DNA of 64,000 nucleotides from Lytechinus pictus. Lineage: Eukaryota. The translations under genes were made by a program, and so were the position numbers. The stretch spans positions 17,858,001 through 17,922,000 of the forward strand of contig NC_087245.1 in the NCBI RefSeq assembly GCF_037042905.1. The letters are read 5' to 3'. Positions 596 through 3,500 of this stretch are shown one piece after another (the first letter of the stretch is position 1; each line of letters starts with the position of its first letter). Under the pieces are notes generated by a model. The model was not told the DNA's origin, ran no database searches, and was given only the letters and a program-made list of their open reading frames with translations.

Positions 596-3500
596 CTGAT
601 ATAAACAAGGATTTTTGTTCAAAAGTTTAAGGAATCATACATGTACATGAATTGAAAATGCAAATTATATTCTCTTACTTTAGTGAATTCCGTAGCAACT
701 TAGGAAAGATTTCATCAACATCAAGAGTCTATAAACTGTACTCTTGCACATTTGTATGTGTTCCCTGACCTACTGCTTACTGATCATGAGTTATATCGTA
801 AAAACGCTGGTTTACATTTTATTTCAAGATGATCAAATGCAATGCAATGAATGCATGACAGGCAGGCCTCAGTGTGAATTTGCTAACCTCGCAAATATCT
901 ATATTAAATGTGTCTCCTTGATATTCCTATAGGAATTTACAAATTTCCTGACACTTGAAGTTTTTGCTTCAAGAAAACATGTATGACATTTCCATAAAAT
1001 CCGGATTTTTTTTAATCATTTTCAAGACATAACTCTTCAAGTCCATATGATGAGATAAGTCCTTTTGATGTTTTAGATTGAGCAAGCAATTGAAAGCTGG
1101 AGCTCAAAAGAAAGGACTTTTTGGAGCCAAGAATGTCTGTTATACAGTGGGGCCCTCGAGAAATGTTGCATTATGGGTAAGGATCCAGGAAGTATTTCAG
1201 CTGTTCTGGGGCCTCATAACATAAAGCTTTGCAACTGATCATGGAGCTGATTTTTATGATTGATTACATTGATTATTGTGCATGATCAATACACCAGTTC
1301 AGAGTTATCTCATGGGCATTTTTTGTCAAGTGACCTTTCATTTCTTTCATTATGATAGGCAGATTTCAAACCAAAACATAATGTAAGCATGCCTTACATA
1401 GCAGGATGCAGAAATTGCATAGACCAGGTAATTAAAATAGCACACAATGAACACTCTAAGAAGGTATTTGTTGCATTTGTACTATGAATGCATTAGCATG
1501 TTGTTGTATCAATGTACTTGGCCTACTGTGAAATACCAGTCCCTAATGGACGCATTTTTGTTTTTTTGTGGATCCAATGAAAAACCCAATGCAAAAGAAT
1601 ATATGAATAATCAAGATACCAAAGTTGGCGCTTTTCTCATTAAATATTGAACCGCCATGTCACTTTAGTACAGATGACCTCCTTCTGATCATGCGCAGAA
1701 TGGAACTACGAACTGGCTTATTGTATAAATCAGCCTCACGATCAATTGCTTAGCTTTATGTCACAGGGCCGATGACTCAAGCTGATGTAATACAAATGTG
1801 GCTGTTGCATATTGGCTTTAATTCACCTTTATATAATGCAACCATGTTAGTCTTACCTATAAAAACTGAAAAGAAAAACTGAATGAGAGGCACATCTAGG
1901 ATTGGTGAGGCCATGTTTAAAAACCAGTTTGGTGACATCGGAAATAACCGCAGGAAGAGGAGAAAGAAGAATAGGCTCTCTAGATTATCTTGAACCTGGA
2001 AAATAAGGTGAAATAAGAAATGTCAGATCATTACTAAAAATCAAATTCTGAAAATGCACACCAAACAGTTAGTTTGGCTAAAATGTAATGGAACTAATTC
2101 ATGCTATCATAAAAGTTAAGTGTTCGTAATAATCCTATAGGAAATCTTCACAGTCTGGGTTTGTTGTTTATATTTCATGAATTGTTGTTAAATATAACAC
2201 ATCATACATTTTCATGTGGATTTCAGGTACATGTCTGAACCTTTTATTGACAACAAAATTAAAAAGATTCTTCAGTTTTATAATGAAAAATGCATGAAGA
2301 CTGTTTAGACACCTGTATCTGAGAAGCTGTACAAAGACAAGTGGAGTGCCTCTGGCAGTCTCACCTGCATTACGCGATTCAATATAGCAGAAGTGCTGAC
2401 TTATTCATATAATGATACAATACTACGTTCATTGACCCTAAATGACATTTGACCTTGATCATGTGACCTAAGACTTGTAAGTAAAGACAGTGATACTTGA
2501 TTACCCCTATGTCCGCAATTCATAAACTATAATATCCATAAACTTTGAAAGTTATGACAGCAATTTAATAATTACCTCCAACATGGCCAAAGTTAATCGC
2601 TAGAGGGTATTCATTTGTCTCGCAATCTACTATGGTCAACAAGGAAATTCATGATCACTCTCGCAAAAAGTGTTCACTAGCTTTCTAGGAAATTCGTGAT
2701 CACTCTCGCAAAAAGTGTTCACTAGCTTACAAGTTCACGAGCTTTCGAGAGCCGCTGGAACTCTTTATCAAGTGACGAAAATTATCTGACAACGTAGCCT
2801 ATTTATACCAACCCCCAGGACCGTACGCACGAACGCGGGAACAATTGGTGGGCACTGATCCGTTATGTGATTGGTCGGGCGTATATGCAAATAAGCCGGA
2901 GGTATATGCAAATACACCGCGAGTCGGCAATATGCAAATAAGACAAAATTGGCGGGCTCGCGGGGTTGACTAGCTGAGCGGTCCCTCGCTCGGGGCCGGG
3001 AACGATCTGGTCGGCGTGCACTGCCAGGTTCATTGACATTAATGATCTTTGACCTTGATCATGTTACCTGAAACTCGCACAGGATGTTCAGTGATACTTG
3101 ATTACTATTATGTCCAAGTTTTATGAACTAGACCAATACAATTTCAGAGTTATGATGGTAATTCAACAAATACCCCCAAAATGGCCAAAGTTCATTGACC
3201 TTAAATGACATTTGACTTTGGCCGTGTGACTTGAAACTTGCACAGGATGTTCAGTGATATTGATTACTCTTATGTCCAAGTTTTATGAATCAGATCCATA
3301 AACTTTCAAAGTTATCATGGTAATTCAACAAATACCCCAACTTGGCCAATGTTCATTGACCCTAAATGACCTTTGACCTTGGTCATGTGACTTGAAACTC
3401 GGGCGGGATGTTCAGTAATATTTGATTATCCTTATGACTAAGTTTCATGAACAAGGTCCATATACTTTCTAAGTTATGATGACATTTCAAAAACTTAACC

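Follow-up and report, generated by a model that had tools for sequence, protein, structure and literature searches.

A minimal hammerhead motif carried into an intron of Lytechinus pictus by a truncated Penelope/Poseidon-type pseudo-LTR

Minimal hammerhead ribozymes (min-HHRs) of Penelope-like elements (PLEs) cut poorly on their own: in Cervera and De la Pena (2014; PMC4209133), cleavage by a single min-HHR was undetectable and that by dimers and trimers was low. The same paper describes a U3-A8 variant of the core in PLE hammerheads, with about 1,300 matches in Schistosoma mansoni, and U3-A8 is a natural covariation according to PMC3088659; the statement of a first-pass annotation of the present locus that the 3-8 pair tolerates U3-A8 is thus found in print. 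Cleavage of PLE hammerheads as dimers is credited to Lunse et al., and the tolerance of exchanges at 3-8 to Przybilski and Hammann, in passages of PMC6765202, PMC3884650 and PMC3088659 that cite them. In the case of the PAc element of Anolis, Frangieh et al. (2024; PMC11167929) report a hammerhead that cut only with the element protein. Insertion in vitro went ahead without this hammerhead, and RNA-seq showed no read ends from it. A search for literature on cleavage rates of U3-A8 minimal hammerheads yielded nothing beyond PMC4209133, and a search for this L. pictus PLE family yielded no paper.

The motif considered here lies in a 64,000-nucleotide stretch of the L. pictus genome (NC_087245.1, positions 17,858,001 to 17,922,000), the whole of which is called the window below.

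2735 to 2775, minus strand: minimal type I hammerhead with a U3-A8 core, an extra A9.1 and a palindromic stem III; stem II is degenerate in this copy

The letters read on the minus strand from 2775 to 2735 are exactly those given by the first-pass annotation, including its UCAC/GUGA stem I (2775-2772 with 2738-2735, 4 bp). The core comprises U3 at 2771, G5 at 2769, A8 at 2766, A9 at 2765, and the extra A9.1 at 2764; stem II includes G10.1 (2763) and C11.1 (2747), and G12 is at 2746. The stem III palindrome A15.1-G-C-U16.1 occupies 2743-2740, and C17 is at 2739. The predicted cut site is between 2739 and 2738, after C17, in agreement with the earlier placement of the cut after the C opposite 2739. 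A core box of the CUGANGA type in its U3-A8 form, a GAAA box, and an NUH cleavage triplet are all present, and the feature quoted as the published mark of min-HHRs is found here and is invariant in 4 of 4 aligned sequences.

A descriptor that allowed C3-G8 or U3-A8, a stem II of at least 3 bp, a palindromic stem III, and a stem I of at least 3 bp, in line with the U3-A8 descriptor proposed earlier as a check, matched once in the window, as opposed to a mean of 0.06 matches per shuffle over 100 dinucleotide shuffles. At least one match occurred in 6 of these shuffles, and in 4 when stem I was at least 4 bp long. The motif exceeds chance expectation. Across the genome, 532 sites match the motif in its family form with up to 3 mismatches and no site matches the reversed control, while a looser U3-A8 pattern gives 523 matches vs 33 in the control. 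The hammerhead models of Rfam, another check proposed earlier, returned no match at gathering score in the window and none up to E = 10 in 1500-4000, so that Rfam speaks neither for nor against the motif. The folding z-scores of this copy and of family copies are unremarkable (0.33, -0.24, -0.52, 1.85, and 0.62), and support for the motif therefore rests on covariation and not on stability.

Covariation was assessed in four sequences: this copy, the genomic copy L031 of the same family, and one copy from each of two sister families, B and C. In a register with A9.1 unpaired and a G10.1-C11.1 pair, 91.7% of 48 cells hold standard pairs, vs 25-51% in slid registers. The first-pass annotation had paired AGAG with CUCU and left a C unpaired; this stem II register, in which 50% of cells pair, was rejected. 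The family stem II has 6 bp with one mid-helix bulge, and stem III is a 4-nt palindrome here and another 4-nt palindrome in families B and C. Both-sided changes occur at five pairs, including pair 3-8 (U-A or C-G) and three pairs of stem II; none of 500 shuffles reached the observed covariation score, a count to be read with the small number of sequences (four) and their relatedness, which the shuffle ignores. The covariation supports the hammerhead fold in the register with unpaired A9.1 and G10.1-C11.1, and its pattern matches the published min-HHR consensus exactly. The genome-wide look for covarying copies proposed earlier gave the 532 family matches and two sister families with compensatory changes at pair 3-8 and three stem II pairs.

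The min-HHR consensus (PMC4209133) shares with this motif the extra nucleotide after position 9, the G10.1-C11.1 pair, and the palindromic 15.2-16.2 segment, and published min-HHRs also resemble it in their short stem I, their location in pseudo-LTRs (pLTRs), and the predominance of solo copies. In Fig. S3 of that paper, one S. mansoni motif has an identical 8-nt core box and stem III palindrome, and a PLE-linked motif of Strongylocentrotus purpuratus has an identical 4-bp stem I but a C3-G8 pair. The three echinoderm rows there are all C3-G8, to which the U3-A8 family adds a further instance. The mid-helix bulge of the family stem II has a counterpart in the one that the same paper describes for D. 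virilis. In contrast with published min-HHRs, this copy has a damaged stem II.

Intact relatives define the element to which the motif belongs. In L031, direct repeats of 1,014 nt that are 100% identical flank an 822-aa ORF, in the order pLTR-RT/GIY-YIG-pLTR; its two hammerheads are 2,867 nt apart, and from the cut site to the ATG downstream of it there are 163 nt. The ORF matches RVT_1 (E 7e-8, above the cut-off) and, at its C-terminus, GIY-YIG (E 0.007, below the Pfam cut-off, with the motif residues visible); a PDB search with the element protein gave 0 matches. Among the protein matches listed, 4 of 57 are full-length (residues 1-822), free of stops, and 99-100% identical, and these near-identical uninterrupted copies indicate a young Penelope-type family. 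The motif is present in both direct repeats of L031, L046, L047, and L048.

The features of Penelope/Poseidon elements are found in this family: a single ORF with RT followed by GIY-YIG, partial tandems, inverted truncated partners, and an optional tail. Judged by eye against the definition in PMC8557442, the ORF has the CCHH-type residues and lacks the CX2-5CxxC linker finger. The descriptions of endonuclease-bearing (EN+) Penelope/Poseidon PLEs (Craig et al., 2021, PMC8557442; PAc, PMC11167929) give the same ORF order, the CCHH residues, and no CX2-5CxxC finger, and also partial pLTR tandems, inverted truncated partners, a 30-40 bp tail, and a hammerhead in the pLTR. By these features, the element fits the Penelope/Poseidon clade. 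One difference is that the PAc ORF starts within the hammerhead, unlike that of L031 with its upstream cut site.

The two sister PLE families (L036 at 4143 and 1479, minus strand, and L040; L037-L045) are at 57-62% protein identity. Their hammerheads are compensated and occupy the same place in the element, with U3-A8 in family B and C3-G8 in family C. In both families the ORF continues across the pLTR and enters the core of the hammerhead. A fourth type of U3-A8 motif, with a perfect 6-bp stem II, was seen at G000:C2:49985118 (L079) and in four similar rows, giving at least 5 matches, all among the first 100 of the looser U3-A8 pattern; it was kept out of the covariation count, the fetched copy L079 being without a matching stem I or ORF.

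In the window, the unit shared with other copies interrupts another repeat, and its parts are as follows.

2594 to 3029, minus strand: 5'-truncated pseudo-LTR of a Penelope/Poseidon-type retrotransposon, 436 bp, without the optional 3' tail of about 31 nt
2960 to 3029, minus strand: remnant of the last codons of the element's RT/GIY-YIG ORF, by alignment to other copies
2800 to 2940, minus strand: promoter-like part of the pLTR, with three octamer-like boxes, a CCAAT box, and a TATA box; function inferred
2642 to 2731, minus strand: 45-nt tandem duplication in the element's 5' leader, common to the family by alignment of copies
2337 to 2593, no strand assigned: left part of an abundant repeat with units of about 162 nt, split by the pLTR insertion (genome comparison, reads)
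3030 to 3528, no strand assigned: right part of the same repeat (genome comparison, reads)

Of the 762 candidates returned when the genome was searched with 2580-2960, 40 were scored, and long matches elsewhere are 90-98% identical. Boundaries were set against 30 fetched loci, and the 31 aligned copies were chosen by BLAST likeness to this copy and are therefore a non-random sample. The shared unit ends sharply in the window, running from 3029 to 2594, and the 5' ends of copies are ragged: their upstream extent is variable and runs into the GIY-YIG/RT reading frame. Relative to other copies, this one has a 16-nt deletion near the ORF stop. The 3' tail of about 31 nt is present in 12 of the 31 aligned copies and missing in 19, this copy among them, and an inverted 5'-truncated partner was found at 8 of 30 loci; an optional tail and inverted truncated partners are signatures of PLEs (PMC11167929, PMC8557442). 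The target-site duplication is 0-3 nt long, ambiguous through microhomology. The motif is thus the built-in hammerhead of a Penelope/Poseidon-type pseudo-LTR, which a 5'-truncated, dead-on-arrival insertion carried into the intron. The first-pass reading of a minimal type I hammerhead of the PLE kind, with a U3-A8 core and a palindromic stem III, stands, with the motif inside a Penelope-type pLTR.

Units of the 162-nt repeat, here 600 nt apart and separated by the pLTR, are deeply covered in RNA runs. The same repeat occurs within 1.5 kb of 5 of 29 other copies (loci L004, L009, L012, L019, and L023), which may be due either to chance, the repeat being abundant, or to preferred targeting. In the 5' leader of the element, a donor-like GTAAG at 2730-2726 and an acceptor-like AG at about 2601, both on the minus strand, could bound an intron; this putative leader intron resembles that described for D. 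virilis Penelope, and is absent among the best 15 read joints.

The TATA-like box of the pLTR (2807-2800) lies 36 nt upstream of core position 3 in this copy. Family C has a spacing of 37 nt; that of family B, counted by eye from a non-canonical box, is about 35 nt. From this spacing, the motif would begin about where transcription of the element should start. A drop in sense read depth of about 22- to 37-fold between 2580-2693 and 2808-2921 (5- to 14-fold on the opposite strand) had been considered as a sign of a transcription start near the TATA box, and was set aside because the sequence there is not the same in intact copies as in this one.

Non-LTR retrozymes (bioRxiv 10.64898/2026.07.22.740005; PMC7229834) likewise carry a type I hammerhead in a repeat that is short, non-coding, and related to PLE pLTRs. 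They form non-coding tandem arrays, whereas this copy stands alone as a truncated end of an autonomous element, with its start inside the ORF. A retrozyme reading of the locus was rejected, as the window holds one copy rather than a tandem array and, in other copies, the unit leads on into the RT/GIY-YIG ORF.

The insertion lies in a gene on the minus strand.

9849-9743, 5446-5293, 4667-4506, 1995-1857, and 595-396, minus strand: coding exons of the host gene, with GT/AG ends and a continuous frame
1996 to 4505, minus strand: third coding intron of the host gene (VTT-domain, TMEM41-type), from exon structure, Pfam, and reads

The motif and the five coding exons share the minus strand, which makes the motif sense to the gene; it falls within the third coding intron, and its cut site is 743 nt upstream of that intron's 3' splice site. 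Exons 3 and 4 match Pfam VTT_dom with E-values of 7e-6 and 1.3e-3 (as single exons, under the curated cut-off), and an Atlas search with exon 3 led to VTT-domain clusters with scores below 0.9 and without a gene name. A second VTT-like locus in the genome is weak (E 0.014). Of the first-pass placement of the motif on the sense strand of intron 3 of TMEM41A, the strand and the intron held; TMEM41A rather than TMEM41B is an assumption from likeness. Four RNA-seq runs were mapped to 300-3700, with the best 15 joints listed and the exon 3-exon 4 joint lying outside that range; in stranded reads, the two exons inside it are covered by minus-strand RNA only. The exon-only read cover in the host gene agrees with a normally spliced mRNA, with the reservation that the sequenced individuals may be without the insertion.

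Long simple repeats, (ACT)n/(ACC)n and (ACC/ATC)n, occur at 3770-4460 in intron 3 and at 4960-5070 in intron 2. Intron 4 holds more high-copy repeat fragments (1212-1781), with reads from other loci on both strands. Elsewhere in the window, a 110-aa frame on the plus strand (20603-20932) has a C..C / H..H pattern which we take to be like the zinc finger that starts DNA transposases.

Two substitutions set this copy apart from its family.

2750, minus strand: private substitution of U for the family's A at hammerhead position 11.4, which breaks U10.4-A11.4 and opens a slipped register
2758, minus strand: private substitution of C for the family's G at hammerhead position 10.5, which breaks a G-C pair kept in all three families

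They account for the sole unpaired cells in the stem II helix: a min-HHR is expected to have a stable stem II of at least 4 pairs, and of the 6 pairs in this family 2 are broken here. This copy's form of the motif has one genome match within 1 mismatch, namely itself. RNA reads carry the family letter at 2750 in 123 of 124, 110 of 110, and 184 of 190 cases, and at 2758 in 90 of 90, 98 of 98, and 158 of 168 (runs X21, X22, and X24, respectively). In the isolated stem II of this copy, the slipped register is predicted to be favored by 1.3 kcal/mol. For the bare 41-nt motif, the predicted probability of the G10.1-C11.1 pair is 0.51 at 37 C and 0.86 at 20 C; with flanks it falls to 0.01 or less in 6 of 6 contexts at 37 and 20 C, vs 0.14-0.97 for L031, because with at least 10 nt of flank a competing hairpin covers the cut site. 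In intact family copies with 25-nt flanks, the predicted probability also goes down to 0.01-0.23, so that predicted folding fails to separate this copy cleanly everywhere; the models leave out Mg2+, tertiary contacts, proteins, and co-transcriptional order. In these models, the two private substitutions probably stop the active ribozyme fold in this copy, although the core nucleotides all remain in place, as do stem I and the three stem II pairs nearest the core.

Across the 31 copies, the substitution rate is 0.0149 per site in the motif and 0.0149 in the downstream leader (65 of 4,351 sites), an equality that leaves the copies without sign of constraint; the motif is intact in 16 of the 31, and others are altered at G5, G10.1, G12, and A9.1. 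The commonest motif change, C17 to U, was seen in 5 of 31 copies (loci named: L011, L016, L017, L021, L029, and L048); since C17 is followed by G, CpG decay is its likely cause. In the 4 RNA runs, no pile-up of read ends was found at the cut site, a weak test in that the unique intron stretches, and with them the pre-mRNA, have zero depth and nearly all motif reads come from other copies.

At the level of the family, the anatomy of the element and the published PLE hammerheads suggest a course of events. In an active element the motif, 35-37 nt downstream of the TATA box, would form the very 5' end of the element mRNA. In a pLTR-ORF-pLTR tandem transcript, two motifs could pair via their self-complementary stem III, probably aided by the element protein, and a slow cut after C17 would then release unit-length RNA. 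Such slow, protein-aided cleavage by dimers appears fairly likely for the family. By analogy with the 5' ribozymes of other retrotransposons, as described in PMC13725137, the hammerhead may also have a role in initiating translation of the element.

This copy, with two private stem II substitutions, no partner in cis, and a predicted competing hairpin, is very probably a passenger: a pseudo-ribozyme, probably inert, that would be spliced out with the intron and have no role for the host. There is a small chance that it still cuts slowly, as a protein-aided monomer or in trans, and harmlessly, being slower than splicing and within a discarded intron. Its intact parts (core, stems I and III, and the three stem II pairs next to the core), the probability of 0.51-0.86 for the bare motif, the presence of family transcripts in the RNA runs, intact ORFs that could supply the protein, and the protein-assisted cleavage shown for the Anolis element (PMC11167929) are all in keeping with slow cutting. 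Against it stand the hairpin that competes once at least 10 nt of flank are present, and a trans dimer that is barely favorable, with a predicted gain of only 0.3 kcal/mol over two monomers. Moreover, insertion activity of the Anolis element needed the first 172 nt of the ORF, an inferred protein site, and this copy is without the ORF start.

It is very unlikely that sense intronic solo pLTR hammerheads act as conditional cutters of host pre-mRNA, whose dimer fold is completed by Penelope protein or transcripts when the family is expressed and which hosts purge or keep in damaged form, as the stem II changes of this copy would then record. If this were true, a transposon ribozyme would impose a measurable cost on host genes that depends on the state of the transposon. 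A related proposal, highly improbable here, is that the stem II substitutions were favored because an active sense hammerhead harmed the host gene, and so record host selection. Of the three differences from the majority in the motif and leader, two fall inside the 41-nt motif and both break stem II pairs; yet the motif makes up 41 of the 182 sites, so that at least two of three changes would fall there about 13% of the time by chance. Other copies are altered at G5, G10.1, G12, and A9.1 at the background rate, and little activity is to be expected of a solo minimal hammerhead in any case (PMC4209133). The report that vertebrate retrozymes are depleted from introns (bioRxiv 10.64898/2026.07.22.740005) bears on the same proposal.

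Functional cases of sense intronic self-cleaving motifs are the HDV-like ribozyme of CPEB3 (PMC10274809) and the hammerheads of RECK and C10orf118 (PMC3088659), which are conserved across species and active as monomers; this copy, likewise sense and intronic, is recent, minimal, privately mutated, and one of a family of about 500. That the motif cuts nascent pre-mRNA fast enough to lower or regulate the host mRNA, as intronic CPEB3 might suggest, can scarcely be credited: the sense orientation in intron 3 and the inverse relation of intronic self-scission to splicing reported in PMC10274809 would allow it, but the insertion is young and of high copy number, its private changes are damaging and the motif shows no constraint, the 3' splice site is 743 nt away vs 9,931 nt and a half-life of 2-3 min for CPEB3 (PMC10274809), and exon-only read cover fits normal splicing (in individuals that may lack the insertion). 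The first-pass suggestion that the motif could cut the host transcript is thus not supported, in any way that would matter, in view of a 532-match family, two private stem II breaks, a competing hairpin, and the lack of any second motif or dimer partner in the 64-kb window, by descriptor and by copy comparison; published PLE hammerheads were inactive as monomers (PMC4209133) or protein-dependent (PMC11167929).

The motif is genuine, yet no more than an ordinary passenger carried at one end of a very common retrotransposon, and cutting of the host pre-mRNA is unlikely. The single locus matters little, as one decaying copy among more than 500. At the family level, a single genome supplies a clean natural covariation set: its three families have U3-A8 or C3-G8 cores, compensatory changes at three pairs of stem II, and exchanged stem III palindromes. 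Together with the intact tandem elements, this set could serve to test the function of PLE hammerheads, which is called still unclear in PMC8557442. If sense-intronic copies were found to cut host pre-mRNA or to be selected against, retrotransposons would be shown to act on genes in a way not described before.
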